In this document: one piece after another, positions 6,570 to 46,475 of the stretch
Layout of the letters: every line of letters begins with the position of its first letter
Numbering within the stretch: position 1 is the first letter of the stretch
Assembly: GCA_947259795.1 (NCBI GenBank)
Contig: CAMYNJ010000104.1
Location: 2,130 to 66,129, forward strand
Direction of reading: 5' to 3'
DNA: 64,000 nt
Source: an uncultured Alphaproteobacteria bacterium
GTDB taxonomy: Bacteria > Pseudomonadota > Alphaproteobacteria > UBA8366 > JADFVY01
Program-made: the position numbers and the translations under genes
The notes under the pieces: generated by a model
Told to the model about the DNA's origin: nothing
The model's input: only the letters and a program-made list of their open reading frames with translations
The model's database searches: none

Positions 6570-6645
<76 letters not shown>

Positions 6646-10666: not shown

Positions 10667-10722
10667 CAGTACCAGGCAGCGCGATGCCTTGAAGGTCAAG
10701 ACATGGAATTGATCTATATCAA

Positions 10723-10747: not shown

Positions 10748-10913
10748 ATTTTGTTTCTGGCGTTGACGACCAGTCAGTCAATACGAAGGAGCGGGTTTCA
10801 TGGAGATTTTTTCACTGCTGTTTTTGGCGGCTTACGCAATTCTTATCCTCTGGGGTCTTGGAACCGTTTTACGGTCCTACAAGCCGAGCGGGCGGGCGCT
10901 TCAATTTCCGCGC

Positions 10914-11111: not shown

Positions 11112-11303
11112 ATAACCGTCGCAAAGGAAGTTCCCGCGCACATCGCCTTGAAAGCGGTGGTGTACGGCACCGGCGACAGGCGCTTCGACAATATCGGCGA
11201 CTTCATCCCCCGCACCAAACCGGCCGCCATACTGCAACGTTGCAAGGAAGTCGCCGGATACGACCTTGCTTGCCTGAACGAGATGGCTGCGGTTCCTCCC
11301 CGC

Positions 11304-11328
11304 GGAACAGCGTTCGTGACATAGGAAT
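11304..11328 (+). promoter_or_regulatory. Tripartite operator site 2
   Basis: GGAAC AGC GTTCG TGACATA GGAAT, 110 nt upstream of the tctC-like start. A fourth half-site (GTTCC at 11292-11296) lies N7 further upstream. Confidence 0.6.
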
Positions 11329-11437
11329 GAAACGGCGTATATTCGAATAATCATACGCTCGAGCGCCCGGTCGGCATGTTACTCCGTAACAATACGCCGG
11401 AGAAAAGCGCCGGGTGACCGAACGGGAGGAACCAAAA

Positions 11438-26440: not shown

Positions 26441-26959
26441 CTAAGGCCCCGTCCCCAGCGGCAAGGTGAAGAACCATCCCAGCGCAATGCCAAACAACCC
26501 GGCGAGAAGCGGCATCGCACCGACGGCGGCCAGCCGCATTCGCAGAAACGACAGGCCAAGTAGCGGAATTTCATAAATAAAAATCCGATGGGCCGCGAAA
26601 ATGCTCCATGAGGTGACGAAGGCGATGAGGGCGGGGGTCGAGGCGCCGGCTTGGGCGAACACGGCGGCGATCGAGAAGGCGATCGCCGGTCCCGCCGGCA
26701 CCGCAATGCCGGTGGCCGAGGCGATCACCACAGCGGTCATCCCGGCATCGCTGCCCAGATAGCGGGCGATGAATTCGCTGGGGATCAGCTTGGCGATAAA
26801 GCCGGCCGCGATCAATGCACAGAACATGCGCGGGGCCAAAATCAGAAACTGCTCCAGGGCACGCCGCAGCCCCTGGCGGAAAGTATCGTCGCGGCGGGCC
26901 AGCGCCAGCGCCATCAGGACACCGGCCATGCCGTAGAGGACGACGATGCCGACGCTCAA
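26441..26959 (-). CDS. Half-size permease subunit B (paralog of subunit A)
   Basis: A TTG start at 26959 overlaps the subunit A stop as TTGA. The protein is hydrophobic, with TGIAVPAGPAIAFSIAAVFAQAGASTPALIAFVTSWSIFAAHRIFIYEIPLLG paralleling subunit A. It may belong to the predicted-permease (COG0701-like) type. Confidence 0.55.
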   Translation of the reverse strand: MSVGIVVLYGMAGVLMALALARRDDTFRQGLRRALEQFLILAPRMFCALIAAGFIAKLIPSEFIARYLGSDAGMTAVVIASATGIAVPAGPAIAFSIAAVFAQAGASTPALIAFVTSWSIFAAHRIFIYEIPLLGLSFLRMRLAAVGAMPLLAGLFGIALGWFFTLPLGTGP

Positions 26960-27564
26960 TGCTTGCTCCCCTTGCCGGCGACGAGGTCCACCAGCACCAG
27001 ATCCATTGGCAGCATGCGGGCGATCAGCCCGGCGAGGATCGGCAGCGGCAGGCTGACCAGCAGGCGGGTCAGCGAAAATTCCGCGCCCATCATCGGCACG
27101 TCCCACACGATGATGCGCTGGAAACCCAACATCGACCAGCTGGCGATATAGGCGACCAGGGCGCCACGGTCGGCCCCTGCCCCGCCCAGCACCGCCAGCA
27201 GCGAGAATGCGGCCGACGGCCCGCCCGGCGTCACTATGCCGGCGGCCGCGGCAATGACCAGGCCCTTGATGCCGCTCTCACTGCCGATCATATTCGTCAG
27301 CCTGTCGCGCGGCAGCATTACCCAGATCATACCGGCCACCAGCATCGCCGCGACAATGCGGGGGATGGTCTTCAGCACCATGCCAAGATCGTTCTCGACC
27401 GCCTCATCGAAGGCCTCCGGCCCGATGACCACATAGCAAGCCGTCGCCGAGACGATGGCGAAGATCACGAATCCCCAGAAACTGCGGCCGAAACTACGGC
27501 GCAGCACGGCGCGCAGCCAAGGCTCCTCTTTTTCTTCTGCCTCGCCAGGCCCGTCAATGGTCAT
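26956..27564 (-). CDS. Half-size permease subunit A
   Basis: The start is MTIDGPGEAEEKEE (an alternative lies at 27582). The protein is hydrophobic, with AGIVTPGGPSAAFSLLAVLGGAGADRGALVAYIASWSMLGFQRIIVWDVPMMG. It overlaps the upstream gene's stop. Confidence 0.55.
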   Translation of the reverse strand: MTIDGPGEAEEKEEPWLRAVLRRSFGRSFWGFVIFAIVSATACYVVIGPEAFDEAVENDLGMVLKTIPRIVAAMLVAGMIWVMLPRDRLTNMIGSESGIKGLVIAAAAGIVTPGGPSAAFSLLAVLGGAGADRGALVAYIASWSMLGFQRIIVWDVPMMGAEFSLTRLLVSLPLPILAGLIARMLPMDLVLVDLVAGKGSKH

Positions 27565-27973
27565 GGTCACGCCCTTGGTCATGGTCGTGGTCGTGATGAT
27601 GACGCTTCGCCTCGCGGCGCGCCGGTTCTCCATGCCCGTCCATGAAGGCCTCCATGGCGGCGCGAAAAATATCGGATTCGGGTGGAAGCTGGGCAGCGAG
27701 CATGCCGGCCAGCCGTGCGAATACGACAGCCTGGCCCGCGATGGCATCGGCCCTCGTTCCCTCTGCCGCGGACGCCGTATCCTTCATTGCCCGTACCATC
27801 GTGTCGCGAAACAGGGCGGACATATAGGTGCCGCGACCCTCCGGTTCGGTCAGATCGTGGGGGACTGGCTGGATTTCCTGCGGTGGGACGACCCCATAGC
27901 TCAAGGCAAACCCGGCGAATCGCCGGAAAATCAAATCGTCGAACGCCGTATCTTCTTCTAAATCACCACACAT
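27554..27973 (-). CDS. Hypothetical protein with a His/Asp-rich C-terminal tail
   Basis: The likely start is MCGDLEEDTAFDD at 27973, but the start is uncertain. The protein ends ...FMDGHGEPARREAKRHHHDHDHDQGRDHDH*. No family was recognised. Confidence 0.45.
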   Translation of the reverse strand: MCGDLEEDTAFDDLIFRRFAGFALSYGVVPPQEIQPVPHDLTEPEGRGTYMSALFRDTMVRAMKDTASAAEGTRADAIAGQAVVFARLAGMLAAQLPPESDIFRAAMEAFMDGHGEPARREAKRHHHDHDHDQGRDHDH

Positions 27974-28172: not shown

Positions 28173-28688
28173 TCAGGCCCTTAGCGCGGTCAGCATCTCC
28201 GCGACATAGTCCGCGTCCGATGCCACCACCAACATTCTTGCGTTTGGCCTGAGCGTCTCCAGCGTCAACTCGACTTCTTCCGCGGAGGCGCCCGCCTCGA
28301 CGATGATGCCCGTGGTCATGATGCCCCGGGCCGCACAGGACCTGCCGACGATGCCAGCATCGGCAGGGGACTCGCCCGCGCTGGCGATCATCACCACGAC
28401 GTCGGCGCCCGGAAGTTCCTTGCTGAGGCGCGCCACAGCGCCCGACCGATCCCGCAAGTCCAGGTCCAGGGGGATCGAATCCAGTCCCTGCACGCCCTTC
28501 GTCCTGCCAATCAGGGACAGGAAACGTGCGCCGTTCCATGACGCGGTTTCCAGGTCCCTTGTTATTGCCGCGGCCCTGTCGTCCATTGCGACGATCTTCG
28601 AGGTGCGCGGTTTCGAGTTCGGATAGTCTACCCTGTAACGCGCCTCTTCGGCCGTCGCCGCCCTGGCGCAATCACTTGGTGAACTCAT
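28173..28688 (-). CDS. Hypothetical protein (distant resemblance to an FtsZ/tubulin N-terminal domain without GTP-binding loops)
   Basis: 171 aa with coding-like composition. KIVAMDDRAAAITRDL...GARFLSL, LPGADVVVMIASAGESPADAGIVGRSCAARGIMTTGIIV and ARMLVVASDADYV parallel the FtsZ strand/loop order, but the G-box is absent. Confidence 0.45.
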   Translation of the reverse strand: MSSPSDCARAATAEEARYRVDYPNSKPRTSKIVAMDDRAAAITRDLETASWNGARFLSLIGRTKGVQGLDSIPLDLDLRDRSGAVARLSKELPGADVVVMIASAGESPADAGIVGRSCAARGIMTTGIIVEAGASAEEVELTLETLRPNARMLVVASDADYVAEMLTALRA

Positions 28689-28727: not shown

Positions 28728-30014
28728 TCAGACCGAAGACTGGCGAACGCCGGGGCGGGCCATAAGATCTTCCTTACACGCGTCCTTGTAGGCCTTGTCC
28801 GGCGGCAGGATCACCGCCGCCGAGCGCACCTTCTGGTGAACCGGATCGACACCCGGCGGCCGGACGCCCTTATCCTTGAGCTCCATCGCCGCCTTACGCA
28901 GACGGTTGCGCGCCATGATGATGCCGTTGTCGGTAGAGACCAGATTTTCCTTGGTGCGGTCGACGATCGGCCCCATGCTTTCCTGTATGGATGCGTCCTG
29001 CATGCCGATTCCCGTGATCCCGGAAAAGGTTTCGCCACGGCGCTGGGCCTCACGGTCCATCAGGTAGTCGTTGTCCTTGTTGGCAGCGGGCCGATATGTG
29101 CCGGGCACATATTTCACATGCACTCCCTTGCCGTCCTGCATGGCCTGGCGTTCCTCGCCCGTCAGCGCGCGGACCGGATGATAGTCGTAGCTCCAGGCCC
29201 AGCAATTATGGTCGTCGATCGGGATCCAGAAATGACCGTGCATGGGATGGTCGCCGCGCGGCGGCACCATGGTGAAGCTGGGCATGACCCAGGGCGTTAT
29301 GCGCCAGTAGTATTTTCCATCTTCGGCGTTGCGGCGGGCGCCGATATAAAGCCCGCCGTCGCTCTCGGTGACCTCGAAGACCGGCATCTTGTCCTGCTGG
29401 TTATACTTGTTGCCGGCGGCGCCCTTGAACAGCGGGTCGCGCTGCAGGTCGCCGCTATGCAGCCAGGAGACGTGACTGGAGTCGATACCGCCTTCCATGG
29501 CCTGCAGCCAGTTGCATTCCTGCAGGCGCTTGGAGGTAAAGGACTGTTCCGCCGGCACCGTCGCGAATTCCCATTCCGGCAGGGGCGGCTGCTGTTCTGC
29601 GGCGCCCATATAGGTCCACAGGACGTCGCCGATCTTAACCAGCGGATAGCCGGCCAGTTTGATTTTCTCGCAAAACCCGCTTTCCGTGGGCTCGGAGGGC
29701 ACCTCGATACATTGGCCGGTCACATCGAATTTCCAGCCGTGATAGGGGCAGCGCAGCCCGTGTTCCTCGTTGCGCCCAAACCATAGAGAGGCGCCGCGAT
29801 GGGGGCAGAATTCGTCGATCAGCCCGTACTTCCCATCGGTGTCGCGGAAGGCAATCAGACGTTCACCAAGCAGCTTGACCCGCACCGGCGGGCAGTCGTT
29901 CTCGGGCAGTTCCTCGGCCAGAAGCGCCGGGATCCAGTACTGCCGGTACATCTCGCCCATGGGCGTGCCGGCATCCGTCTGGGTCAGAAGATCGTTTATT
30001 TCCTTGCGCAGCAT
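28728..30014 (-). CDS. Rieske [2Fe-2S] non-heme-iron oxygenase, phthalate-dioxygenase family (alpha subunit only)
   Basis: The start MLRKEINDLL is preceded by GGGAGGA. The Rieske motif is CPHRGASLWFGRNEEHGLRCPYHGWKF and the iron site is NWLQAMEGGIDSSHVSWLH. Overall it is collinear with phthalate 4,5-dioxygenase-type proteins. No beta-subunit gene is present. Confidence 0.9.
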   Translation of the reverse strand: MLRKEINDLLTQTDAGTPMGEMYRQYWIPALLAEELPENDCPPVRVKLLGERLIAFRDTDGKYGLIDEFCPHRGASLWFGRNEEHGLRCPYHGWKFDVTGQCIEVPSEPTESGFCEKIKLAGYPLVKIGDVLWTYMGAAEQQPPLPEWEFATVPAEQSFTSKRLQECNWLQAMEGGIDSSHVSWLHSGDLQRDPLFKGAAGNKYNQQDKMPVFEVTESDGGLYIGARRNAEDGKYYWRITPWVMPSFTMVPPRGDHPMHGHFWIPIDDHNCWAWSYDYHPVRALTGEERQAMQDGKGVHVKYVPGTYRPAANKDNDYLMDREAQRRGETFSGITGIGMQDASIQESMGPIVDRTKENLVSTDNGIIMARNRLRKAAMELKDKGVRPPGVDPVHQKVRSAAVILPPDKAYKDACKEDLMARPGVRQSSV

Positions 30015-30126
30015 TGCGGTCCTCCCTGTGCGGCTCTTGATCTCGTTTTGCGGTCTGCCTCTGCCAACTGCCTTGTCACGCTTCGCCATATCAGGCGCGG
30101 TGCGAAATTCGGGATTGTTGAAGACT

Positions 30127-30151
30127 GTTCTTGCATGCGGAACGCTGTTCC
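30127..30151 (-). promoter_or_regulatory. Tripartite operator site 5
   Basis: The minus strand reads GGAAC AGC GTTCC GCATGCA AGAAC, between the divergent oxygenase and ferredoxin genes. Confidence 0.65.
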
Positions 30152-30208
30152 CTTATTGAGTTCAGGCTACATCGTATGCTGGATTACGTCAACATGGAGG
30201 CGAGGGGA

Positions 30209-30526
30209 ATGGCGGCTGATGACGCGCGAATGGATCTGTGCGCAACCGGAGACGTGGAGCCCGGAACGGCCATCAAGGTCGAAACCGGGGACCTGTCGCT
30301 GGCGGTCTACAATGTCGAGGGCGAGTTCTTCGTTACCGACGATCTCTGCACACACGGGCCGGGTTCACTGTCGGAAGGCTATCTCGACGGCCATATTGTG
30401 GAATGCGACTTCCACAACGGCGCCTTCGACATCCGCACCGGCGAGGTCGCGGCCCCGCCCTGCATGATTCCCCTGAAAACCTATAAGGTCACGGTAGAGA
30501 ACGGCCGGGTTTATATCGGAACCTGA
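30209..30526 (+). CDS. Rieske-type [2Fe-2S] ferredoxin component of an oxygenase system
   Basis: CTHGPGSLSEGYLDGHIVECDFHNGAFD carries the CxH...CxxH pattern. The protein is about 105 aa. The chosen start is ATG 30209, after GAGGGGA, with earlier ATGs at 30131 and 30194 also possible. Confidence 0.85.
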   Translation: MAADDARMDLCATGDVEPGTAIKVETGDLSLAVYNVEGEFFVTDDLCTHGPGSLSEGYLDGHIVECDFHNGAFDIRTGEVAAPPCMIPLKTYKVTVENGRVYIGT

Positions 30527-30549: not shown

Positions 30550-31671
30550 TCACGCCGCCGATCTGGGCGGCAGGTCGGGCAATTCCGCCTCATAGGCCGC
30601 TTCCATCCTCGGCTCCAGCCCGTGTTTGGCAAGCGAGTCGGCAAACATGGTACGGATCAGCGGCTTTTCGTCGGCATAGTCGATCTGGTCGCCGCCGATT
30701 CGCATGCTGATCCAGGCCTTGGGTACGCCCTGTGCGTTGCGGACCGACACAGTCTCGTGCTTGAAGGCCAGATAGCGCGCCGGCGTTGTGCCGGTGTTGA
30801 AATGCTGGTGGAACCACATGTTCGGCGGCACGATCATGCTGCCGACCTTCCATTCGTATCGCTTCGGTTCCTCGCCCTCCGGCCACATCAGGCTGTAGCC
30901 CTCGCCACCGAGAATGATGACATGGGCGCCGGGGCCGTGCCGGTGGCATTTCTTGTAGGTGCCCACGGGGAACTGCGAGATGTGGCTGTTCATTGAACCC
31001 TTGGCCATGGCGAAACGGATATGGCCGCCGCCGGCCCCGCGTTCCTTGGCATCGATCAGCGGCAGGTTTACCGCGTCGGCGACGAAATTGGTTTCCAGTA
31101 ACAGGCCCTTCTGTTCGCCCTTGTTGGCGAAATAGTCGGCTTCGCCGTTGAACCGGTTCTTGAAATCGAAGGACGAGTTGAAAATGAAGTCGGTGTCTTC
31201 GTACAAATTCATCACAGGCGGGCAGTTGGTGACCGCGACATAGCGCACCGGCTCCTGTCCGGACCCGTTGAAATGCTGGTGCCAGGCATTCAGCGGAATG
31301 GCGAAGATCGCGCCGGGTCCCCATTCGAACGTGATTTTTGCGCCGGCGTCGTTCCAGACCGCGGTGGAGCCGCGGCCCGAGAGGACCATGATCATTTCCT
31401 CGAAAATCTGCCTTTGCGGCGCCAGTTTGCCGCCCTTAGGGATTTCGCAGACATAGCAATCGTTTGAGGTGCGCGAAGCATCGTGATTGATGAACACCGC
31501 GCTGCCGCCGCGCCTCGCCCAGGGCTTCAATTCGACCGTATTGAGGTCGGGGACGTAATGGGCGCTGATGATGTCCAGGCCTTCGCTCGCCACCCAGCGC
31601 GTATAGGGCGTTTCCTTTTCGGTCGCGAATTTGCTGGCCATCTTGTCTGAAACGATCGCGTCTTTAGCCAT
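30550..31671 (-). CDS. Bicupin protein 1 (HQHFN cupin family; type sometimes labelled ethanolamine ammonia-lyase-activating protein)
   Basis: The start MAKDAIVSDK is preceded by GGAGAA, and the 501-aa ORF-track extension is rejected. The N-terminal barrel lacks HxH (APQRQIFEEMIMVLSGRG ... AWHQHFN). The C-terminal barrel has KKCHRHGPGAHVIILGGEG ... MWFHQHFN. Confidence 0.8.
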   Translation of the reverse strand: MAKDAIVSDKMASKFATEKETPYTRWVASEGLDIISAHYVPDLNTVELKPWARRGGSAVFINHDASRTSNDCYVCEIPKGGKLAPQRQIFEEMIMVLSGRGSTAVWNDAGAKITFEWGPGAIFAIPLNAWHQHFNGSGQEPVRYVAVTNCPPVMNLYEDTDFIFNSSFDFKNRFNGEADYFANKGEQKGLLLETNFVADAVNLPLIDAKERGAGGGHIRFAMAKGSMNSHISQFPVGTYKKCHRHGPGAHVIILGGEGYSLMWPEGEEPKRYEWKVGSMIVPPNMWFHQHFNTGTTPARYLAFKHETVSVRNAQGVPKAWISMRIGGDQIDYADEKPLIRTMFADSLAKHGLEPRMEAAYEAELPDLPPRSAA

Positions 31672-31761
31672 ATGGTTTCTCCATTCTTTACCCATCCGCC
31701 GGGCACCCGCGGCCCGATCAACAGTTGACGCAGAGTATTGCCACACTAAACTCTCGTCAAT

Positions 31762-31786
31762 GGACCGCCGGTCCGTATAGCGGAAC
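31762..31786 (+). promoter_or_regulatory. Tripartite operator site 6
   Basis: GGACC GCC GGTCC GTATAGC GGAAC, in the 138-bp divergent region between bicupin 1 and EutA-like 1. The 18-mer CGGTCCGTATAGCGGAAC is identical to site 7. Confidence 0.65.
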
Positions 31787-31809
31787 ATCAATATTTTTCT
31801 GGAGACCCC

Positions 31810-33552
31810 ATGCCCGATTCCGACGACATGAAGAAATCGCCCGGCCATAAGCTGGAAGACCATTTCTATGGCGATTTCGGTTATCACGAGCACGGGCCTG
31901 ACGCCGACCACGACCATGACGATTTCGAAACGTCGGGATCGATCGAGGACAATCCGATCTGGGTGCAGGACAATGTGACGCTGAAAAGCGTCGGAATCGA
32001 CATCGGGTCGGCGGGTACTCAGGTGGTCTTCTCGCGCATCCATCTGCGCCGCCATGGCGAGGATCTGACCAGCCGCTACATCGTCGTTGAGCGCGAGACC
32101 TTTTTCCAGTCGCCGGTAAGCCTGACGCCTTATTCAAGCGATGTGCGCATCGACGACCGCGCGCTGGGGGAGGTCATCGACGAGGCCTACCGGATGGCAG
32201 GCATGCATCCCGACGACATCGATTCGGGCGTGGTCATCCTGACCGGCGAGGCGCTGCGCCGGGAAAATGCGGAAGGCATCGCGGGTATTCTGGCCGAACA
32301 GGGCGGCGAGTTCGTCTGCGCCACCGCCGGCAACCATATGGAGGCCATGCTGGCGGCCTACGGGTCCGGTGCCGCGCTGGCCAGCCATGAAGAGGGCAAG
32401 CGTATCCTAAATATCGATATCGGCGGCGGCACGACAAAATTGGGCCTTGTCGAGGACGGGCGCGTGCTGGCCACGGCGGCGATCCATATCGGCGGACGCC
32501 TGATCGTCACCGACGAAGAGGGCCGCATCACCCGGCTGGACCCGGCCGGCCGGCATCACGCCAGGCGCGCCGGTTTCGACTGGTCGGTCGGCGATGTCGT
32601 GGCTCCCGGCGATCTCGCCGGCGTTGTCGAGGGCATGACGGACCTGCTGGTCGCCGCAGTAACGCAAGACCCGCCGCCCGAGGAAGTCCTGCGGCTCTAC
32701 CTGACAGATCCTATCGAGGAGTTTGGACCAATCGAAGGAGTAATGTTCTCCGGCGGAGTCGCCGAATATATCTACCAGCGCGAATCGCAATCCTTCGGCG
32801 ATCTCGGTCCCCTGCTCGGCGCGGCGTTGAGGAAGCGGGCCGCTGCCGGCCTGTTGCCCGGCCCGATGATGCCGGCCGGCGAATGCATCCGCGCCACCGC
32901 CCTGGGCGCGTCGGAATACAGCATCCAGCTCAGTGGCAACACCAGCTATATCTCAAACCCGGGCAAGCTGCTGCCCCGGCGGAATGTCCAGGTGCTCAAG
33001 CCCGATCTCGAATTTGCCGAAGAGGTTTCGACGGATGCGGTGGCGAACGCCATTCGCGGCCATTTCACCGCTTTCGACCTGGATGATTCGGATACGGAAG
33101 TGGCGCTGGCGTTCGAATGGACGGGCCACCCGGAATACGGCCGCATAAGGGCTTTCGCCGACGGCATCGCCGAAGGGGTGGCGGAACGGCTGGCGCGGGG
33201 CCTGCAGCTTTACGTCATGCTGGACGGCGATATCGCGCTGACGCTGGGCAATATCCTGCGCGACGAGGTGGGGATCGAAAATGATATCCTGGTGATCGAC
33301 GGAGTGCTCTTGCGCGACTTCGATTATATCGACCTGGGGCGCATTCGGCTGCCGTCGATGACCGTGCCGGTGACCATCAAGTCACTGGTGTTCAGCGACG
33401 ACCCGCGCGGCGCCCACCGGCACGAACGCATCCATCATCACGAGGATGAGCGCCATCACCGCCACGATCACGGTGACGGACACCATCATCACCATCATGG
33501 CGATGGCGACCACCAACATCATCATCACGGCGACAGCGAGAAGAAGGGGTAA
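31810..33552 (+). CDS. EutA-like ASKHA-fold ATPase with His-rich N- and C-terminal extensions
   Basis: It is collinear with EutA: SVGIDIGSAGTQVVFSRI, DSGVVILTGEA, LNIDIGGGTTKLGL, IRATALGASEYSIQLSGNT and VPVTIKSLVF. The N-terminus is HKLEDHFYGDFGYHEHGPDADHDHDD. The C-terminus is HRHERIHHHEDERHHRHDHGDGHHHHHHGDGDHQHHHHGD. Confidence 0.8.
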   Translation: MPDSDDMKKSPGHKLEDHFYGDFGYHEHGPDADHDHDDFETSGSIEDNPIWVQDNVTLKSVGIDIGSAGTQVVFSRIHLRRHGEDLTSRYIVVERETFFQSPVSLTPYSSDVRIDDRALGEVIDEAYRMAGMHPDDIDSGVVILTGEALRRENAEGIAGILAEQGGEFVCATAGNHMEAMLAAYGSGAALASHEEGKRILNIDIGGGTTKLGLVEDGRVLATAAIHIGGRLIVTDEEGRITRLDPAGRHHARRAGFDWSVGDVVAPGDLAGVVEGMTDLLVAAVTQDPPPEEVLRLYLTDPIEEFGPIEGVMFSGGVAEYIYQRESQSFGDLGPLLGAALRKRAAAGLLPGPMMPAGECIRATALGASEYSIQLSGNTSYISNPGKLLPRRNVQVLKPDLEFAEEVSTDAVANAIRGHFTAFDLDDSDTEVALAFEWTGHPEYGRIRAFADGIAEGVAERLARGLQLYVMLDGDIALTLGNILRDEVGIENDILVIDGVLLRDFDYIDLGRIRLPSMTVPVTIKSLVFSDDPRGAHRHERIHHHEDERHHRHDHGDGHHHHHHGDGDHQHHHHGDSEKKG

Positions 33553-33564
33553 GGGCGGGGGAGG

Positions 33565-34173
33565 CTACTTCCGCGCGACGAGGTCTATGAGGGCCGACAT
33601 GCCGACATGGCCTGCGCCTTCGTCGACCTCCTCGTCATATTCCTCGATGGAAAGTTCGGAGAACTCGCCGAAGAATTCCATCAGCAGGTCCCTGGTATAG
33701 AGCTGGTCCAGCTTCTTCGGTCCACCGGTACCGTATTCCAGTTGCTTCGGGCCGTAACCCTCGATCAGCAGCAGGCCGCCTTGCTTCAATGCCTGCTTCA
33801 TGCCGTTGAAGATCGCGGCGCGTTCCGCCGGCGGGGCGAACTGCATGAAGATGCCCACCAGCACGTCATAGGCGTCGACGGGCCAGTCCCAGCCCTGCAG
33901 CAGATCGGCCTGCTCGGTGCGGATCGTTACGCCGCGTTCTTTGGCCAGCGCCTCGGCCTTGGCCAGCGCGGTGGGCGAAAAATCCACCGAATGAACATCC
34001 AGCCCGTGCTCGGCCAGCCAGACGCCGTTACGCCCGTCCCCGTCGGCCACGGACAGGGCTTTCATGCCGGGCCGCAGCCTGTCGGCCTGGCGCGCCAGGA
34101 AGGTGTTAGGCCGGTTGCCGAACAGATAGCCGGGGGCAGAGAATCGCGTTTCCCAGCGTTCCAGTTCGCTCAT
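33565..34173 (-). CDS. Class I SAM-dependent methyltransferase
   Basis: ALSVADGDGRNGVWLAEHGLDVHSVDFS is SAM motif I. The protein is about 200 aa. It starts 1 nt after the tctA stop. Confidence 0.85.
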   Translation of the reverse strand: MSELERWETRFSAPGYLFGNRPNTFLARQADRLRPGMKALSVADGDGRNGVWLAEHGLDVHSVDFSPTALAKAEALAKERGVTIRTEQADLLQGWDWPVDAYDVLVGIFMQFAPPAERAAIFNGMKQALKQGGLLLIEGYGPKQLEYGTGGPKKLDQLYTRDLLMEFFGEFSELSIEEYDEEVDEGAGHVGMSALIDLVARK

Positions 34174-34174
34174 G

Positions 34175-35686
34175 TCAGGCTCCTTGCCGGGCGCGCCGGG
34201 ATATCAGCTTGCGTGCGAACGGCAGGAAGAAGGTCAACAGGGTCGCGACAATCAGGATGACCGATGCCGGTCGGCCAAGCATGAAGCTCCACATTTGATT
34301 GTCGGAAATCATCTGCGTCATGTGGAAAGAGCGTTCGGCCGTGTCACCCAGCACCAGGGCGATGACCAGCGTCAGGCGCGGGTAGTCGAAGCGGATCATG
34401 ATATATCCCAGAATTCCCATGATCAGCGTCAGGATCACGTCGCCCGGCTTGCCTTCCAGCACATAGACGCCGGTCAGCGAAACCGCGATGACCACGGGCA
34501 CCAGGATATGGACATTCACGAAGGTAATCAGCACCAGCCAGCGCGCCAGCAGCAGCCCGATGATCGAGGCGCCGACCGCCGACAGGGTCAGCGCCACGAT
34601 CAGGCCGTAGATTTCGCGCTCGTTGTCCAGCAGGATCGTCGGGCCGGGATCGATGCCGTGCAGCACCAAAATTCCCAGGAACAGGGCGGTCTCGGCGCTG
34701 CCGGGAATGCCGAAGGCGACCGTGGGCACCAGCGATCCGCCATCCTTGGCGTTGTTGGCCGATTCCGGCGCGATCACCCCGACGATATTGCCCTTGCCGA
34801 AGCTTTCCGGTTCGCGCGAAGCCTGTACCGTGGAAGTATAGGCGATGAAGGAGGCGACGGTGCCGCCCAGCCCGGGAATCGCCCCGATGATGGTGCCGAT
34901 GACGGAGCCTCGGAGCAGTACCGTCCAATGCCGGAACACGGCGGCGACCCCGCTCCACAGGTCGGTAATGCGGCGGGTTATGCCATCATCGCCACCGCTG
35001 GCCACTGATCCGCCCTTCAGCGCCAGTTCGATCATCTGGCTGATCGCAAACATGCCGGTCAAGGTGGGGACCAACGGGATGCCATCCCACAGATAATTGA
35101 AATCCATGGTGTAGCGTTCCTCGCCGGTGATCATGTCGGTGCCGACGAACGCCAGAAACAGGCCCAATCCTCCGGCGATCAAGCCGCGCAACAGCTTGCC
35201 GCGCGCCGATATTGCAATGGCGGTGAGGCCGAGGAGGGTGAGCAGAAGAAACTCCGCCGGCCCGAACAGCAGAACGATCTCCTTGGCCAGCGGAATAAAC
35301 AGCAAAAGCGTGAACAGCCCGATCAGCCCGCCCATCGCCGAGGCGGTGGCCGAGGCCCCGATTGCCAGCCCCGCCTTGCCCTGCTGAGCCAGCGGGTAGC
35401 CGTCGAAAGTCGTGGCCGCGTTTGGCGCGGTGCCTGGCGTGTTGATCAGGATGGCGGTGATCGACCCGCCGAACGACGTGGCGCCCATCACGCCGCCGGC
35501 CAGATACATGGCGTCCAGCGGCTCCATCGAATAGGTCACCGGAATCAGCAGCGCCAGCGCCGTGGTGCCGCCCAGCCCCGGTATGACGCCGAAACATAGT
35601 CCCAGCGTTACGCCGATAAAAACATAGATCAGACTGCCGCTGCTCATTACTTCGGCAACGGCGCCGAAAAGAAGATCGAAACCCAT
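34175..35686 (-). CDS. tctA: TTT large permease TctA
   Basis: 503 aa with GVIPGLGGTTALALLIPVTYSMEP and PESANNAKDGGSLVPTVAFGIPGSA. Confidence 0.9.
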   Translation of the reverse strand: MGFDLLFGAVAEVMSSGSLIYVFIGVTLGLCFGVIPGLGGTTALALLIPVTYSMEPLDAMYLAGGVMGATSFGGSITAILINTPGTAPNAATTFDGYPLAQQGKAGLAIGASATASAMGGLIGLFTLLLFIPLAKEIVLLFGPAEFLLLTLLGLTAIAISARGKLLRGLIAGGLGLFLAFVGTDMITGEERYTMDFNYLWDGIPLVPTLTGMFAISQMIELALKGGSVASGGDDGITRRITDLWSGVAAVFRHWTVLLRGSVIGTIIGAIPGLGGTVASFIAYTSTVQASREPESFGKGNIVGVIAPESANNAKDGGSLVPTVAFGIPGSAETALFLGILVLHGIDPGPTILLDNEREIYGLIVALTLSAVGASIIGLLLARWLVLITFVNVHILVPVVIAVSLTGVYVLEGKPGDVILTLIMGILGYIMIRFDYPRLTLVIALVLGDTAERSFHMTQMISDNQMWSFMLGRPASVILIVATLLTFFLPFARKLISRRARQGA

Positions 35687-35716
35687 TACACCCGCGCCCG
35701 AACTTGAAAAAGGCGA

Positions 35717-35751
35717 ACGCGGCGCGCCGTCATCGAACGGGGGCGCGCCGC
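35717..35751 (-). promoter_or_regulatory. Intercistronic GC-rich hairpin between tctC and tctA
   Basis: CGCGGCGCGCC - 13-nt loop - GGCGCGCCGCG (11-bp stem), in the 81-bp tctC-tctA spacer. Confidence 0.5.
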
Positions 35752-35767
35752 GCCAGGTTACAAGACG

Positions 35768-36721
35768 TTACTTGGCGGCAACAAAGTCCTTGTATTGCCC
35801 GTAGAAGCCGTCGATCTCAGAAACCATTTTGGCGGCCCCGTCGGAATCGACCGGATCCAGCGTCACCCCGGCCTTGGCGGCCCATTCCTTGATCTCGGCC
35901 GAGTTCGCCGCCTCCAACAGCGCGTCGGACAGGCGCTTGCGGATATCGTCCGGCAGGCCCGGAGGTGCTGCGATCAGGCGGCGCAGGTTGAATTTCGACA
36001 ACTCGCCGTAGCCGATTTCACCGGTTGCCGCGGCGCCGTCGACCATCGCCTTGTCGGTATAGGTGGCGATAATGCGCAGATCGCCGGAATCAGCGTACTT
36101 ACCAAGCGAGCTGACGGGTTTCAGGGTGCCGTCGACCTCGCCACGCATGACCGCGATCATCGCGCCCTTGGAGCCCTTGTAGCCGGTCACGTTAACCAGC
36201 GGACAGTCGATCAACTGGAAGGAAATCTTCGCCACGATCGACGAAGTTGAGGATGCGCCCGTGTCCGATAGCTTGGCCGGCCGGCCCTGGCTGCATAGAT
36301 CCTTGAATGTCTTGATCGGCGAGTCACCCTTGACCGCGATACCGTAACTCTCCGTCGCCAGATTCGCCAGCCAGGTTACTTTGTCCAGCTCGAAGCCAAG
36401 GTCCTTGCCGGTCAGTGTGGAAACGGTGAACCCGGGCATGTTGTAAATGCCGATGGTGTAGCCGTCGGGCGCAGCCCGCGCCACGGTCGCCGCTCCCTTG
36501 GTGCCGCCGGCGCCGGGAATGTTTTCCGGCACCACTTCAGCCCCCAGTGCCTTTTCCAGCGCCGGCACGAACGCGCGCACGATGGTGTCGAACCCGCCGC
36601 CCGGGCTGTAGGGGATGATGAATTTGATCGGCTTGTCGTTCGGCCATTCCGCGGCGGCGGGATTTGCCGCGAACGCGACCATGACAGCCAGCAGGCTGCT
36701 TCCTATCCATTTGCACTTCAT
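35768..36721 (-). CDS. tctC: TctC/Bug-family substrate-binding protein
   Basis: It has the signal peptide MKCKWIGSSLLAVMVAFAANPAAA, then KPIKFIIPYSPGGGFDTIVRAFVPALEKALGAEVVPENIPGAGG. Confidence 0.9.
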   Translation of the reverse strand: MKCKWIGSSLLAVMVAFAANPAAAEWPNDKPIKFIIPYSPGGGFDTIVRAFVPALEKALGAEVVPENIPGAGGTKGAATVARAAPDGYTIGIYNMPGFTVSTLTGKDLGFELDKVTWLANLATESYGIAVKGDSPIKTFKDLCSQGRPAKLSDTGASSTSSIVAKISFQLIDCPLVNVTGYKGSKGAMIAVMRGEVDGTLKPVSSLGKYADSGDLRIIATYTDKAMVDGAAATGEIGYGELSKFNLRRLIAAPPGLPDDIRKRLSDALLEAANSAEIKEWAAKAGVTLDPVDSDGAAKMVSEIDGFYGQYKDFVAAK

Positions 36722-37055
36722 TGGTTGGTCTCCTTGTCCCTATCTGGTTTCGGCCCGGCTAGTTTCGGACCGGCCCCACCGAGTTGTTATATTTGCCCCC
36801 CAAAGCGGGGAGAGCGCACACTGTACCACGAGTTACCGAAGGCCGGGAGCGACCGTGACCGATAAAATCCGGCACAGATTCCTGACCGACCGCGACCGCC
36901 CGGCGATGGATGCCGCCGGTTGCGGCGCGCGCAGGGGTCCTGGCGAACGGCCCGTGGCGAGGCGGCCCGGAAAGCCGTTCCCCGCATCGCGGCGCCGATC
37001 GCGGCGGATTGCCACAAGATCGATTCTATCTGCCGGGCTGACATATCGTTTCCAC

Positions 37056-37571
37056 CTACCAGTTGGAAAAGCCGCGTTCGTCGAACAGCACGCCGCGATA
37101 GAGCTCGTAGTCGAGCAGAACTTCAAAGACTACGAATACGAAACCGAAAACGATGGCGCCGGCGGCGACGCATTCCAGCCAGCGCCGGCCGCCATGAAAC
37201 GCCATATACCCCATTACGAAAACGGGCACGCTCGGCAATATGCCAATCGTCAGCATGCCGGCGACGCAGCCGGTGACCCAGAGGACCTGGGCGATATCGG
37301 CCTTCCAGGCCGGATTATGCTTCATCTCGCGATTGCGAAAATCAGCGCCCCAGAAATCCTTCAGCATTTGCGAGAACGGCAAGTTCAGTCGGCTGAGAAT
37401 ATCGACGATGCAGAGCGCCAGCATGCCCCAGCCGACCAGCACCGGCACCAAACGCGCGGTTTCGCCATAGCTGTGCGACCAGAAAATCATCAGGGCCGAA
37501 AAACCGGCCAGCACGACAGCCGGCCAGATCGACCGCACAGCCTTCGGGGCCCTGTTGTCATCGCTGCTCAT
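37056..37571 (-). CDS. tctB: TctB-like small membrane subunit
   Basis: The start is MSSDDNRAPK at 37571. It has four hydrophobic segments, and SYGETARLVPVLVGWGMLALCIVD and GILPSVPVFVMGYMAFHGGRRW parallel the TctB at 22880 and the fused domain at 18.2-18.7 kb. Confidence 0.65.
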   Translation of the reverse strand: MSSDDNRAPKAVRSIWPAVVLAGFSALMIFWSHSYGETARLVPVLVGWGMLALCIVDILSRLNLPFSQMLKDFWGADFRNREMKHNPAWKADIAQVLWVTGCVAGMLTIGILPSVPVFVMGYMAFHGGRRWLECVAAGAIVFGFVFVVFEVLLDYELYRGVLFDERGFSNW

Positions 37572-37596
37572 TGCGCTCCCGCCCATCCCATCTTTT

Positions 37597-39093
37597 CTAT
37601 TCTCCGGGGAACAGCAGCGATTTGATGACCACGGGGACGGCGCCCGTCGCACGCAGCACTTCGCCGATGTCGATGAAATCGAACTCGCTCAGCTCGATCC
37701 CGTCGATGGAGATCAACGGGTTTTCCAGGCCTTCCTCCTGGCGGCAATGGATGCCGACCAGCCCGCCGATATCGCCGTCCACCACCAGGATCAGCGGGTG
37801 GCCACGGTCCAGTATCGGGCGCATGCCGGCGATCACGCCGCGGCTCAACCCTCTTAGCCGGTGGAACATGGCGGAGCCCTGCCAGGGGATAGTAACGGCC
37901 ACGGCTTCCTCGCCATGGGCCAGATCCATGCGGGTCAATGCCGTACCGACCTTGGCGGCGACGACGGTCTCGTCGATCTCGTCGCCGGAAAGATCGAGGT
38001 CCGGCGCGATAACCGGGACGTTCCGCACGGGTAAAACGTCCGGCGGATCCAGGAAGATCGTGCTGCCACTGACCTGGACCGTGTATTGCGACGCGCCGAC
38101 CACGGTGGCGCGGATGCCCTGATCGGCCATGGCGATCCGGACGCCCTTGCCTTCGACGAGCGCTCGCACGGCGTCGGCCAGGTCGGGGCCGAGATCGCGA
38201 AACCCGTCGGCTTCCCGCCCGTAAATGTATTCCGACACGCCGCCGGAAAAAGTTACGGAGGCAGGCTCGGCGGCGTTCAACGGCGGCAGGCGCAGCCAGT
38301 CGCCCAGTTCGGCGCCGCCGGCAGCTTCCATAATACGGCCGGCCATGCGCCCGGCAATGGCGCGCCTGGCCTCCGGCTCGCAGAGATCGCCGATATTCAA
38401 CGGCAGCCCCAACTCGTCCAGATAGCGCCGGCCGAAAGGTTCGATCCGCTCGATCCGGCTGTTGCCGTCGAACACCAGGAGGCGTGCGCCGGCCTCCACC
38501 GCCGTCAAGGATTCGGCCTCGCCGCCGCTGCACAACGCGATCTTCGTGGTGCCGCCGCCGATGTCGATATTCATGACCGACCCCCCGCCGTCCGCCGACA
38601 GGGCTAGCGCGCCGGACCCGTGGGCAGCCATCAGTGTTTCCAGCCCGTCGCCGGCGCTGACCGCGACGAATTTGCCCGTCTGCGCCGAGAACAGGTCGCC
38701 AATCGCCCGAGCATTGGCCCGCCGCACGGCGACCCCGGTCAGGATCAGGGCCCCTGTGTCGATATCGTTGGGACTCAATCCAGCGGCTTTATATTGCCGG
38801 TCGATGAAGTCGCCCAGCGCCTCGGCGTCGATATCCTCGCCGCCGCGATAGGGGGTCAACAGGATATCGGACTGATGCAGGATGCTGCGTTCCGCCACCA
38901 CATAGCGGGTGTCCAGGCGCTCCAGCAGGATTTTCGAGAACAACAGATGCGAGGTCGAAGAGCCGATATCGACGCCGACGCTGGTCAACTCGATCTCGTC
39001 TTCCTCGATGAGGCTCCGGCTGGCGTTACTGAAGAAGATCCGCCCGCCTTCGCTCGCCTCGTCGGTCACGCTTATGGGCTTGGCCGCGGTCAT
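37597..39093 (-). CDS. EutA-like ASKHA-fold ATPase (paralog 2, no His-rich tails)
   Basis: The start MTAAKPISV has its ATG overlapping the bicupin 2 stop as ATGA (39090-39093). Motifs are SVGVDIGSSTSHLLFSKI, DTGALILTGVA, MNIDIGGGTTKIAL, IRATVVGASQYTVQVSGST and VPVVIKSLLF. Confidence 0.8.
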   Translation of the reverse strand: MTAAKPISVTDEASEGGRIFFSNASRSLIEEDEIELTSVGVDIGSSTSHLLFSKILLERLDTRYVVAERSILHQSDILLTPYRGGEDIDAEALGDFIDRQYKAAGLSPNDIDTGALILTGVAVRRANARAIGDLFSAQTGKFVAVSAGDGLETLMAAHGSGALALSADGGGSVMNIDIGGGTTKIALCSGGEAESLTAVEAGARLLVFDGNSRIERIEPFGRRYLDELGLPLNIGDLCEPEARRAIAGRMAGRIMEAAGGAELGDWLRLPPLNAAEPASVTFSGGVSEYIYGREADGFRDLGPDLADAVRALVEGKGVRIAMADQGIRATVVGASQYTVQVSGSTIFLDPPDVLPVRNVPVIAPDLDLSGDEIDETVVAAKVGTALTRMDLAHGEEAVAVTIPWQGSAMFHRLRGLSRGVIAGMRPILDRGHPLILVVDGDIGGLVGIHCRQEEGLENPLISIDGIELSEFDFIDIGEVLRATGAVPVVIKSLLFPGE

Positions 39094-40298
39094 TCGCCGT
39101 CGGGTTTTTCGTACAGCGACGGGTCCATGCGGCTTTTGCCCTGGTTCAGCGCGATGCAGCCTTCGAACTCCTCGCGCAGATACGGGTCCTCCATCCAATA
39201 GGGAATCGAGGTGCCGCCCTCCGTGACGTCCATCGCGGTATAGTCGATCTGCTTTTCGCCGGGCCGCAGGCCGGTGACCAGGCTGGGATGGTTGGGCCCG
39301 AACCAGGCGGTCAGCCGGAACGGCTCGCCCGACGTGTTGAAATGTTGGTGATACCAGCGCGCGCCGCCCGGCGCCGCGCTGACCATGCCGACGGGTTCAT
39401 AGTCGACGCGCTGCACCTTGTCGCCGTGGCCGTCCTGCCACGGGGTGACGCCACATTCTTCCGGCCAGGTATAAGTATAACCCTTGCCCTTTACACAGAT
39501 CAGGATGGCGGCCGAGGTATGCGCATGCGCCTTGGAATAGCGTCCCGTCTCGTGCTGGCCGATCCACAGATAGAACTTGTTGCCGGTCATGAAGGGTTCC
39601 ACCCGGCGGTAGCCCGGCGAGCGGCGGTTATCCAGCGGCAGTTCGCAATTCATCACGTCGGGCACCAAATTGGTGCGCCGCATGGCCAGGCCGCGGATCG
39701 GATCAGGCTCCAGATCCTCGACCGGCTTGTAGAAGTCCTCCGACGAGGAATAGCGGTCGGTGAAATTGTAGGGGCAGTCAAAGATGAAATTGGTGTTGCC
39801 GACCAGGTTCATCAGGTTCGGCGCCGTCGTGCCGGCCAGTAGCAGGGCCGGGCTGGAGGTCGCATTGACGATGCGGTGGTAGGCATTGACGGGAATCGAA
39901 AACAGCGATCCCTGCTGCCACTCGAAAACATGTTTCCTGCCGCCTTCTTCAAGCCAGACTTCGGTAGAGCCGCGGCCTTCGACGACCAGGAAGATTTCCT
40001 CATAGATGTGTTTTTCGACGTTCAGCGCGCCGGCGCCCGGCACCTCCACGACGTAAGAGCCCCATTTACCCTCGGTGCCGTACAGCTGGATGTAGTGGCC
40101 GCGTCCGCCCATGCGGGGCCAGTCGTGAAGCGGCAAATTCTGCACCTTGCTGATGCCTATATCGCGATAGACCGGGATGCCTTCGGCTTCCATGAAACGG
40201 TCGTAATCCATCTGCGGTTGGCCAAACTTGCCGAACCCGGCGCGTTCGCCCGCCGTCGGTTCATGCCAATGGACCGTGCCTTCCAGGTCATGCGGCAT
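39090..40298 (-). CDS. Bicupin protein 2 (HQHFN cupin family)
   Basis: 402 aa. The N-terminal barrel is NVEKHIYEEIFLVVEGRG ... AYHRIVN. The C-terminal barrel is SKAHAHTSAAILICVKGKG ... RWYHQHFN. It is a paralog of 30550-31671. Confidence 0.8.
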   Translation of the reverse strand: MPHDLEGTVHWHEPTAGERAGFGKFGQPQMDYDRFMEAEGIPVYRDIGISKVQNLPLHDWPRMGGRGHYIQLYGTEGKWGSYVVEVPGAGALNVEKHIYEEIFLVVEGRGSTEVWLEEGGRKHVFEWQQGSLFSIPVNAYHRIVNATSSPALLLAGTTAPNLMNLVGNTNFIFDCPYNFTDRYSSSEDFYKPVEDLEPDPIRGLAMRRTNLVPDVMNCELPLDNRRSPGYRRVEPFMTGNKFYLWIGQHETGRYSKAHAHTSAAILICVKGKGYTYTWPEECGVTPWQDGHGDKVQRVDYEPVGMVSAAPGGARWYHQHFNTSGEPFRLTAWFGPNHPSLVTGLRPGEKQIDYTAMDVTEGGTSIPYWMEDPYLREEFEGCIALNQGKSRMDPSLYEKPDGE

Positions 40299-40360
40299 CG
40301 TCTCCAGCCTCCCGTTTCCTGCCCAGGCTGACAGTATGACGCAAAACCGGTTTCGTCAAC

Positions 40361-40385
40361 GGGACGACGGTCCGTATAGCGGAAC
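40361..40385 (+). promoter_or_regulatory. Tripartite operator site 7
   Basis: GGGAC GAC GGTCC GTATAGC GGAAC, 63 nt upstream of the bicupin 2 start. Confidence 0.65.
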
Positions 40386-40427
40386 AATCGTGAGGAGATT
40401 TTCAATGGCGAGGCACGTCCTGAATTC

Positions 40428-45601: not shown

Positions 45602-45626
45602 AGAACAGCGTTCCGCAATGAGGAAC
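45602..45626 (+). promoter_or_regulatory. Tripartite operator site 9 (in front of / overlapping the IclR gene start)
   Basis: AGAAC AGC GTTCC GCAATGA GGAAC. It contains the first in-frame ATG (45618) and lies 25 nt upstream of the alternative ATG at 45651. Confidence 0.65.
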
Positions 45627-46475
45627 GACAAGCAGATTGCAGGGAATGTCATGACACGGTCAGACCACACGGTAACCGGCGCGGCCGGTGGCGACGAGCC
45701 CAAGTCCCGGCTGTCTTCTGTCACCACGGCCATCCGGCTGTTGAAAGCCTTTACGGAAAGCGACCGCGAGATCGGCATCAGCGCGCTGTCCAAGAAGCTC
45801 GGCGTATCCAAGAGCACGGTGCATCGCGTCGCGACGACGCTGGTCGCCGAGGGGTTGCTGGAACAGAATCCGGAAACCGACCGTTACCGGTTGGGCCTGG
45901 CGCTGTTTTCGCTGGGCACCCTGGTGCGCCGGCGCATGGATATCCCCAACGAGGCGAAGCCCTTCCTGTCGAAGCTGCGCGATTCGTCGAAGGAAAACAT
46001 CCATCTGGCCGTGCTGCAGGGTACCGAGGTCGTCTATGTCTATGACATGGAAAGTTCCCAGGCGGTGCGCGTGCGGCCGCATCTCGGCGCATCCAAGCCA
46101 TTGAATTGTTCGGCCGAGGGCCTGACGATCCTGGCGTGGCAGTCCGAATCCTTTATCGACAAGGCCTTGTCCGTTTCGTTGTTGCCGCGCACCGACAACA
46201 CCATGACGGACCCCGCAAAAATCAAGGCACGGCTGGAGAAGGTTCGCAGCGACGGTTATGCGCTGGAGGACGAAGAGAGCGAAATCGGCATGCGCTGCGT
46301 GGCCGCACCGATCCGCGATGCCGAGGGAAATGTGGTCGCGGCCGTAGGTGTCGCGGGACCCAGTCAGCGGCTGTCCACCCACGCCATCAAGAACTTCGCC
46401 CCCCAGGTTCGGGAAGCGGCGGAATCCATATCAATGCGGCTCGGCTATCGGGCGGGCGCCAAGCGATACGCCTGA
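45618..46475 (+). CDS. IclR-family transcriptional regulator
   Basis: It has an N-terminal wHTH (SSVTTAIRLLKAFTESDREIGISALSKKLGVSKSTVHRVATTLVAEGLLEQ) and a C-terminal IclR effector domain (GYALEDEESEIGMRCVAAPIRDAEGNVVAAVGVAGP). The true start may be ATG 45651. Confidence 0.85.
   Translation: MRNDKQIAGNVMTRSDHTVTGAAGGDEPKSRLSSVTTAIRLLKAFTESDREIGISALSKKLGVSKSTVHRVATTLVAEGLLEQNPETDRYRLGLALFSLGTLVRRRMDIPNEAKPFLSKLRDSSKENIHLAVLQGTEVVYVYDMESSQAVRVRPHLGASKPLNCSAEGLTILAWQSESFIDKALSVSLLPRTDNTMTDPAKIKARLEKVRSDGYALEDEESEIGMRCVAAPIRDAEGNVVAAVGVAGPSQRLSTHAIKNFAPQVREAAESISMRLGYRAGAKRYA

Follow-up and report, generated by a model that had tools for sequence, protein, structure and literature searches.

The His-rich nickel chaperones and nickel stores include HypB (with its 'nickelin' region in Bradyrhizobium), UreE, CooJ, SlyD and Hpn, while the COG0523/CobW metallochaperones (ZigA, YeiR, Nha3 and the nitrile hydratase activators) have been proposed to metalate client proteins under metal scarcity. 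In the DdrAB and GdrAB reactivases an ASKHA (Hsp70-like) ATPase pries open the client enzyme and exchanges its damaged cofactor. How cytosolic cupins acquire the right metal is an open problem and, to our knowledge, no delivery protein has been described for OxdC, MncA or any other cupin. Cupins bind metals by the Irving–Williams order and MncA is the standard case of mis-metalation (PMC4192464, PMC11742986), taking the wrong metal unless the folding environment is controlled (2vqa title; PMC11742986, PMC4192464). EutA exchanges cob(II)alamin (Co(II)Cbl) for adenosylcobalamin (AdoCbl) on ethanolamine ammonia-lyase (PMC9426561). Here we analyse a stretch of 64,000 nt from an uncultured Alphaproteobacteria bacterium (contig CAMYNJ010000104.1; the whole stretch is referred to below as the window), in which the gene for a EutA-family ATPase with His-rich ends, ATPase 1, lies beside that for a two-barrel cupin, bicupin 1. 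On sequence comparison and analogy we lean towards the view that ATPase 1 is a dedicated ATP-dependent ASKHA factor for metal insertion into, or reactivation of, bicupin 1. A paralogous pair, ATPase 2 and bicupin 2, lies in the same window. The features concerned are as follows.

30550..31671, minus strand: bicupin 1, 373 aa, divergently transcribed from ATPase 1 (Pfam Cupin_2, two stretches)
31810..33552, plus strand: EutA-family (ASKHA) ATPase 1, 580 aa, extended at both termini by His-rich segments (Pfam EutA)
31846..31923, plus strand: ordered N-terminal His/Asp motif of ATPase 1, residues 13–38, H-x3-DH-x2-G-x4-HxH-x4-DHDHD (from the alignment)
33394..33549, plus strand: His-rich C-terminal tail of ATPase 1, residues 529–580, following VPVTIKSLVF, the last strand of the core; 20 of its 52 residues are His
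37597..39093, minus strand: EutA-family ATPase 2, 498 aa, no His-rich ends (Pfam EutA, E = 9e-107)
39090..40298, minus strand: bicupin 2, 402 aa, 31% identical to bicupin 1 (Pfam Cupin_2; C-terminal barrel HAH...HQH)

The core of ATPase 1 is a bona fide ASKHA ATPase. The ATG start codon is preceded at 6 nt by a GGAGA Shine–Dalgarno sequence, and the Pfam EutA domain (PF06277) covers residues 58–528 over profile positions 3–474 of 475 (E = 4.9e-116), with about 45 N-terminal and 52 C-terminal residues outside it. In an alignment of 58 sequences the ASKHA motifs DIGSxGTQ, DIGGGTTK and SGGVxEY are invariant in the ATPase 1 clade, the invariant positions of the phosphate-1 (DxGxxxT), phosphate-2 (DxGGGT) and adenosine (GG) motifs being D64, G66, S67, T70, D203, G205, G206, T209, G315 and G316. 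AlphaFold2 models the core with a predicted local distance difference test score (pLDDT) of 80–97 and both extensions as disordered, the C-tail falling below 50. Foldseek searches with the core returned only the generic actin-fold ATPases PilM, PPX/GppA, MreB and HgdC, all with a probability of 1.00, and a sequence search of the PDB gave no relative of ATPase 1 or bicupin 1 and no EutA structure either. As the structural matches are only to generic ASKHA folds for ATPase 1 and generic bicupin folds for bicupin 1, no function could be transferred from them.

The C-tail of ATPase 1 (residues 529–580, SDDPRGAHRHERIHHHEDERHHRHDHGDGHHHHHHGDGDHQHHHHGDSEKKG) contains 20 His in 52 residues against a background of 2.07% His in 38 other open reading frames (ORFs) from the window, the ATPase 1 core itself having 2.1% (binomial P about 1e-20), which agrees with the original prediction of about 20 His at this end, made with correct peptide strings and coordinates. 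No 45-residue stretch of any other gene in the window holds more than 8 His, the runner-up being a second His-tailed protein that is described below. Residues 1–45 hold 6 His and 13 Asp or Glu (P about 3e-4 for His alone), so that the predicted His/Asp enrichment of the N-terminus is real; it is not merely a matter of composition, as the residues form an ordered motif, and this motif predates the C-tail and has a wider distribution. Within this motif H13, H18, G21, H26, H28, D33, D35 and H36 are invariant across the 58 aligned sequences, down to 43% identity, and D17, H34 and D37 are conserved in at least 90% of them. In the C-tail the junction DPR..R(I/L)HHH is conserved, and in the His tract beyond it composition is kept and sequence is variable. 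Among the 2741 clusters (at 50% identity) of the wider EutA family, the N-terminal His motif is present in many clades at 40–50% identity and the C-tail in few, suggesting that the N-terminal motif is the older feature. The paralog was correctly predicted to have neither extension: members of the ATPase 2 clade are 486–526 aa long with a median of 0 His at both ends.

Both His-rich ends are present in all 120 of the nearest homologues (64–100% identical, 553–610 aa), with 8–29 His in the last 60 residues. For a broader survey 81 distinct orthologues were parsed from 13 genome loci, 80 metagenome loci and the loci from reverse look-ups, although it should be noted that the first scan of genome contigs, which gave the 13 loci, had the poly-His run itself among its search patterns. 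At least 5 His were found at the N-terminus in 79/79 assessable orthologues, 76 of the 79 matching the motif, and at least 6 His follow the last core strand in 75/81 (median 17, range 0–36). The tails are thus retained in orthologues (79/79 N-terminal, 75/81 C-terminal), absence being the outcome that the original prediction had named as fatal to it. Where the C-tail is poor in His, as it is in six orthologues, the N-terminus holds 6–22 His (8–10 in four of the six), compared with a median of 7; across all orthologues the N- and C-terminal His counts are weakly anticorrelated (rho −0.23, p 0.04). It seems that total His content, rather than its position, is maintained. Conservation of the His-rich tails extends over both Alpha- and Betaproteobacteria. 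In the Bacillota orthologue, from Halalkalibacterium ligniniphilum, the His tract is wholly N-terminal: there is no C-tail and a tract of 36 residues, HHHHHHDHNDAHHHDHDHSHHDHEHSHGHHHGDHEG, stands at the N-terminus. One orthologue with the N-terminal motif only (L106) lies on a short contig in which no gene context could be read.

The C-tail codons of ATPase 1 are a mixture of CAT and CAC in short repeats, and this, together with the poor conservation of tail sequence and length in detail, would fit a neutral low-complexity expansion produced by CAC/CAT slippage and without function. We regard such an origin as barely credible. His richness is kept in 75/81 orthologues across phyla, the N-terminal motif is invariant at 43% identity, loss of the C-tail usually goes with a higher N-terminal His count and the paralog clade never gains such tails. 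The alignments indicate that the His tails of ATPase 1 are not drift.

ATPase 1 resembles EutA in Pfam family, ASKHA core and ATP-binding motifs, and like EutA it is encoded beside a single partner enzyme, the cofactor of which it presumably services. It might accordingly be asked whether ATPase 1 is a genuine EutA that serves an ethanolamine ammonia-lyase encoded elsewhere, with His ends that are accessory (for example for binding cobalt or cobalamin) and a cupin neighbour that is coincidental. The Pfam match (E = 5e-116) is to EutA and the best NCBIfam matches are to the EutA equivalog models, and one orthologue (in L017) lies directly 5' of genes for EutB and EutC, with EutB 8.7 kb distant in another locus (L081). 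However, ATPase 1 reaches only about half of the NCBIfam EutA cut-off (with the four models NF007991–NF007994, at best 321.8 bits against a cut-off of 598, and relatively less with the other three, 197–256 bits against cut-offs of 769–952). The canonical EutAs of E. coli, Klebsiella, Listeria and Clostridioides are 30–32% identical, align only to residues ~57–529 and lack both His-rich extensions. The 64-kb window has no eutB homologue and no eutBC, and EutB adjoins in 1 of about 100 related loci as against bicupin 1 in 15 of 17 well-flanked loci; the paralog and a third ATPase clade likewise pair one-to-one with bicupins. We therefore consider a genuine EutA very doubtful. By sequence, ATPase 1 belongs to a large, sharply defined clade of the PF06277 family and is not a typical EutA, from which it differs in usually partnering a bicupin instead of EutBC and in its presumed cargo, a metal ion in place of cobalamin. 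In the databases the ATPases are called 'EutA' and the bicupin is sometimes called 'ethanolamine ammonia lyase-activating protein', a name apparently given by association.

Bicupin 1, the proposed client, is conserved above the level of ATPase 1, its orthologues being 70–87% identical and the Bacillota and Proteobacteria proteins 73% identical. Its C-terminal barrel had been predicted to keep an HxH...H metal site, and this is borne out in the fuller form HxH-x4-H...HQH (H243-x-H245-x4-H250 ... H288-Q-H290). H243, H245, H288 and H290 are invariant even in bicupin 2, at 31% identity, while H250 stands at the position usually occupied by Glu in cupins and is replaced by a hydrophobic residue in bicupin 2. 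The N-terminal barrel has QxQ...E..H. AlphaFold2 gives a confident bicupin fold (pLDDT 82.5); among solved structures it comes closest to those of the Mn bicupins OxdC and MncA (TM-score only ~0.47, about 11% identity), from which bicupin 1 differs in having a 4-His-type site in the C-terminal barrel only.

ATPase 1 is tightly syntenic with bicupin 1. In the metagenomic sample, where loci were picked independently of the presence of a bicupin and an orthologue of bicupin 1 was defined as at least 65% identical, 17 loci extend for at least 5 kb to either side of the ATPase, and such an orthologue lies within 10 kb in 15 of these and no more than 1.5 kb away in 13; among loci with flanks of at least 1.5 kb it is found near the ATPase in 28 of 35. 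Reverse look-ups starting from bicupin homologues found the His-tailed ATPase adjoining. Some loci carry additional cupin genes next to bicupin 1: two monocupins of ~205 aa each in L007:19061-20330 and L010:15708-16997, and a second bicupin with three monocupins in L020:11161-14140. These extra cupins hint at a multi-cupin pathway or complex.

The second pair of the window has the same composition. The genes for bicupin 2 and ATPase 2 overlap by 4 nt and are joined to the first pair by the following genes.

33565..37652, minus strand: S-adenosylmethionine (SAM) methyltransferase (33565–34173), TctA (34175–35686), TctC (35768–36721) and TctB (37056–37652), linking both pairs (Pfam)

The bicupin 2–ATPase 2 pair is kept in L022, L023, L024, L107 and L108. 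In L022 and L024 the gene order is bicupin 2, ATPase 2, TctB, TctC, TctA, methyltransferase, ATPase 1 (on the opposite strand), bicupin 1, Rieske ferredoxin and Rieske oxygenase; L023 has the bicupin 2 side only, without ATPase 1 and bicupin 1. A third type of bicupin, 39% identical to bicupin 1 and with the site HRHAAGTH...HQH, is encoded on a plasmid of Phyllobacterium zundukense (L109, 6950–9752) and is followed directly by its own EutA-like ATPase, with the N-terminus (M)HDFDLDHEHED from a GTG start. A putative metal transporter of the YjbE/TerC type is encoded near this third pair. The N-terminal peptide is conserved and distinct in each ATPase clade, being the H/D motif in clade 1 and, in clade 2, GGR(I/V)FFS...SRSLIEEDEI, whose GGR(I/V)FFS part has no His. 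The presence of His in this peptide matches the presence of His at the cupin Glu position (bicupins 1 and 3 as opposed to bicupin 2), although with n = 3 this is only a lead. Pairs of a bicupin and a EutA-like protein are a general module, and pair 2 is proposed to be the same kind of module minus the metal reservoir. A more distant member of the EutA family, 41% identical and with the N-terminus MHEHEYEHVHYDD, lies between genes for luciferase-like monooxygenases with no cupin (L105:4801-8703); from these neighbours, clades of the EutA family may serve unrelated client enzymes.

Genes for nickel or cobalt transport and regulation recur beside these modules. The gene for HupE/UreJ (PF04955) separates bicupin 1 from the ATPase in L054, L077 and L089, is next to the ATPase in L059, L071 and L074, is nearby in L055 and L024, and in L004 directly follows bicupin 1 in the same orientation. 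Short permeases of the NicO family (PF03824) are encoded 0.8–3 kb upstream in L010, L068, L069 and L103. Elsewhere on the same P. zundukense plasmid (NZ_CP104971.1), in L107 at 7687–12069, a pair of the bicupin 2 type is followed directly by a HoxN/HupN/NixA transporter (NicO E = 4e-109) and then nikR, with a NikR-like box, GTATGA-N16-TCTTAC, at ~11610–11637 between the transporter gene and nikR; a NikR box was also sought upstream of the Phyllobacterium cupin operon and not found there. In L011 an orphan UreE with a His-rich tail of its own (8270–8755) is encoded two genes 5' of the ATPase, with no other ure genes across the 21-kb locus. Overall a Ni/Co gene (HupE/UreJ, NicO/HoxN, NikR or UreE) is present in 15 of about 103 distinct loci, many on short contigs, where less than 1% would be expected by chance in a random 20-kb window, as roughly estimated from a few such genes per genome. 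When the window and six loci with HupE were scanned against Rfam, a tRNA was the only hit, and there was no NiCo or cobalamin riboswitch. As the neighbouring transporter and regulator genes favour nickel or cobalt, our best guess for the metal of the module is one of these two; iron, manganese and zinc may still be candidates.

A different transport system is found just 3' of the ATPase in L005, L007, L009, L010, L015 and 15 metagenomic loci, consisting of a fused two-domain ATP-binding cassette (ABC) permease (~580 aa), a TOBE_2 ATPase and binding proteins of the SBP_bac_1/6/8/11 families. We considered and rejected the assignment of this system, next to the betaproteobacterial orthologues, as an iron(III) importer; the best sub-threshold matches are to systems of the 2-aminoethylphosphonate/polyamine type and it was therefore not counted as metal evidence. 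It is probably an importer of substrate and not of metal.

The original suggestion of a metal-delivery or storage role towards the neighbouring cupin is partly supported, in that all of its points open to a computational check came out in its favour. The mechanism that we favour starts from four direct observations: the features of the sequences, how well these are conserved, the synteny of ATPase and bicupin, and the repeated presence of Ni/Co genes. By analogy with the His-rich nickel chaperones, the disordered tails would capture and hold several divalent ions, for which nickel or cobalt fit best. The ASKHA core would bind the bicupin, and ATP hydrolysis would open or remodel the C-terminal barrel in a manner analogous to cobalamin exchange by EutA. 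The N-terminal H/D peptide would then pass the ion to the HxH-x4-H...H site, or else extract a wrong or oxidised ion. DdrAB and GdrAB provide the mechanistic template for this proposal, although they belong to another family, have cobalamin as their cargo and have no His-rich tails. HypB, UreE, CooJ, SlyD and Hpn share with ATPase 1 disordered terminal poly-His or His/Asp tracts of variable length and a gene beside a metalloenzyme; some ATPase 1 loci also lie beside HupE/UreJ, NicO or NikR, and coupling to an NTPase would be as in HypB and UreG. The engines differ, HypB and UreG being G3E P-loop GTPases, CooC a MinD-type ATPase and SlyD a peptidyl-prolyl isomerase, and so do the clients, which are hydrogenase, urease and carbon monoxide dehydrogenase as opposed to a cupin. 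Pfam and NCBIfam searches with ATPase 1 gave no match to the G3E GTPases (HypB, UreG, CobW), CooC or UreE, so that the likeness is functional only. The COG0523/CobW proteins likewise combine an NTPase with His/Asp stretches of the HDHDH type but have the G3E GTPase fold with a CxCC motif and no sequence relation to ATPase 1.

The same tails could be read as a metal store, buffer or sensor that passes no metal directly to the cupin, comparable with Hpn or with the HypB nickelin region of Bradyrhizobium, or as a device by which the ATPase is regulated by metal availability. Their composition (H, D, G and E), disorder and very variable length would suit such a role, as would the second poly-His protein in the cluster. 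We nevertheless think it decidedly unlikely as a full account, since the N-terminal motif is position-specific and invariant, unlike a simple buffer, and the gene is tightly syntenic with one particular metalloenzyme; moreover, storage overlaps with metal insertion as the best explanation rather than excluding it.

The strict one-to-one pairing bears on a further possibility, that ATPase and bicupin together form a two-component ATP-dependent enzyme in which the ATPase activates the substrate (compare the ASKHA kinases and subunits of the hydantoinase type) and the His ends bind a structural or catalytic metal. Three distinct types of bicupin each have their own ATPase, the 4-nt overlap in pair 2 suggests translational coupling, and the modules lie in catabolic clusters (with a Rieske oxygenase, a thiamine pyrophosphate enzyme, a class II aldolase, and tripartite tricarboxylate transporters (TTT) or ABC transporters), all of which would be in keeping with such an enzyme. 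It is unlikely in our view because the one family member to have been characterised exchanges a cofactor and is not a kinase, because a His tract that ranges from 0 to 36 His and shifts between termini behaves as is usual for reservoir tails but unusual for catalytic sites, and because the nearby genes for Ni/Co uptake and regulation fit a role in maturation.

Several observations weigh against ATPase 1 as a metal-insertion or reactivation factor for bicupin 1. Orthologues without a bicupin within 10 kb occur in L001, L003, L009, L011, L032 and L043. In L017 (9971–13929) an orthologue that is 63% identical and has both tails lies directly 5' of genuine eutB–eutC (EutB E = 3e-216, EutC E = 6e-86) with no bicupin within 10 kb, and this is the one clear exception to the pairing. 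A Ni/Co gene is present in only about 15% of loci, many of them on short contigs, and the window itself contains no recognisable gene for a Ni/Co transporter, NikR or UreE. AlphaFold2 yields no structure for the His-rich tails of ATPase 1, although disorder is to be expected in the absence of metal and is thus uninformative on the geometry of binding. Lastly, the tail-less pair 2 is also linked to nickel (through the NiCoT and NikR genes in Phyllobacterium), suggesting that the His tails are not required for the metal function of the family and are instead an added device for reservoir or capture.

A wider reading, which we put forward tentatively and regard as possible rather than probable, is that the EutA family as a whole consists of client-specific ATP-driven cofactor exchangers, with ethanolamine ammonia-lyase, at least three types of bicupin and apparently luciferase-like monooxygenases as clients; the His-tailed clade would then be a new class of nickel (or cobalt) insertase with an actin-fold ATPase and the bicupin an undescribed Ni/Co enzyme that is widespread in soil and aquatic Proteobacteria. 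Searches of the full-text literature gave no report of EutA-like proteins in connection with cupins, His-rich tails or nickel genes (HupE/UreJ, NikR). From its sequence and the analogies drawn above, ATPase 1 is proposed to be an NTPase-coupled metallochaperone of the His-rich kind whose scaffold and client are both without precedent; if true, it would be the first delivery system for a cupin and the first metallochaperone on the ASKHA/EutA scaffold. The name 'ethanolamine ammonia-lyase reactivating factor EutA', carried by thousands of database entries, is probably wrong, as is the 'activating protein' name of the cupins encoded next to them. It may also be that the bicupin is a new enzyme dependent on nickel or cobalt, within a catabolic island that is widespread and directed at aromatic or organic acids; the cluster points to a substrate of this kind, taken up by a TTT system and acted on by a Rieske oxygenase of the LigXa type. 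Heterologous expression of such cupins may require the partner ATPase. Among cultured bacteria, pair 1 is carried by Pusillimonas caeni KCTC 42353, Noviherbaspirillum humi U15 and H. ligniniphilum L1, and pair 2 by P. zundukense A18/3m and Roseivivax jejudonensis.

The two pairs also share a sequence in their upstream regions.

31753..31787, no strand assigned: operator-like motif in the divergent bicupin 1/ATPase 1 intergenic region, palindrome GGACCGcCGGTCC (shared motif)
40355..40386, no strand assigned: second copy of the operator-like motif, 5' of the bicupin 2–ATPase 2 operon (shared motif)

The motif common to both pairs is about 30 nt long, TCAAnGGnnCGnCGGTCCGTATAGCGGAACA, and the window contains two exact copies of its 19-nt core, CGGTCCGTATAGCGGAACA, where 0.03 would be expected. 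Its position upstream of both pairs suggests that one regulator may control both, perhaps the product of the IclR gene at 45618–46475.

The remaining features of the window are the following.

26441..27747, minus strand: two adjacent ArsP_1-like half-permease ORFs, 26441–27106 and 26956–27747, starts uncertain (weak Pfam ArsP_1)
27554..27973, minus strand: second His-tailed protein, 139 aa, starting MCGD and ending RHHHDHDHDQGRDHDH (no Pfam or NCBIfam match)
28173..28688, minus strand: conserved 171-aa protein with no family match, directly downstream of the Rieske oxygenase in at least seven loci
28728..30089, minus strand: Rieske oxygenase alpha subunit of the LigXa_C type (Pfam Rieske and LigXa_C)
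30131..30526, plus strand: Rieske-type ferredoxin (Pfam Rieske; NCBIfam ferredoxin-subunit models)
6570..6642, plus strand: tRNA gene, the only match at the Rfam gathering threshold in the window

Orthologues of the 139-aa protein in L004 and L016 start with MCGEIDE and end in long poly-His tracts, and tblastn found homologues also in L008, L026 and L029; the N-terminal Cys and poly-His of this protein are reminiscent of nickel-binding proteins. In NCBIfam the half-permeases weakly match the families SO_0444 (Cu/Zn efflux) and SaoE, and they are conserved together with the 139-aa protein in L004, L016 and L029, with which they may form a metal transport unit. The Rieske oxygenase accompanies the module in many, though not all, loci. 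The true start of the Rieske ferredoxin is probably later than 30131, an orthologue being 104 aa long. The 171-aa protein contains the motif GADVVVMIAxAG...IMTTG, which bears a faint resemblance to the nucleotide-binding region of FtsZ/tubulin.

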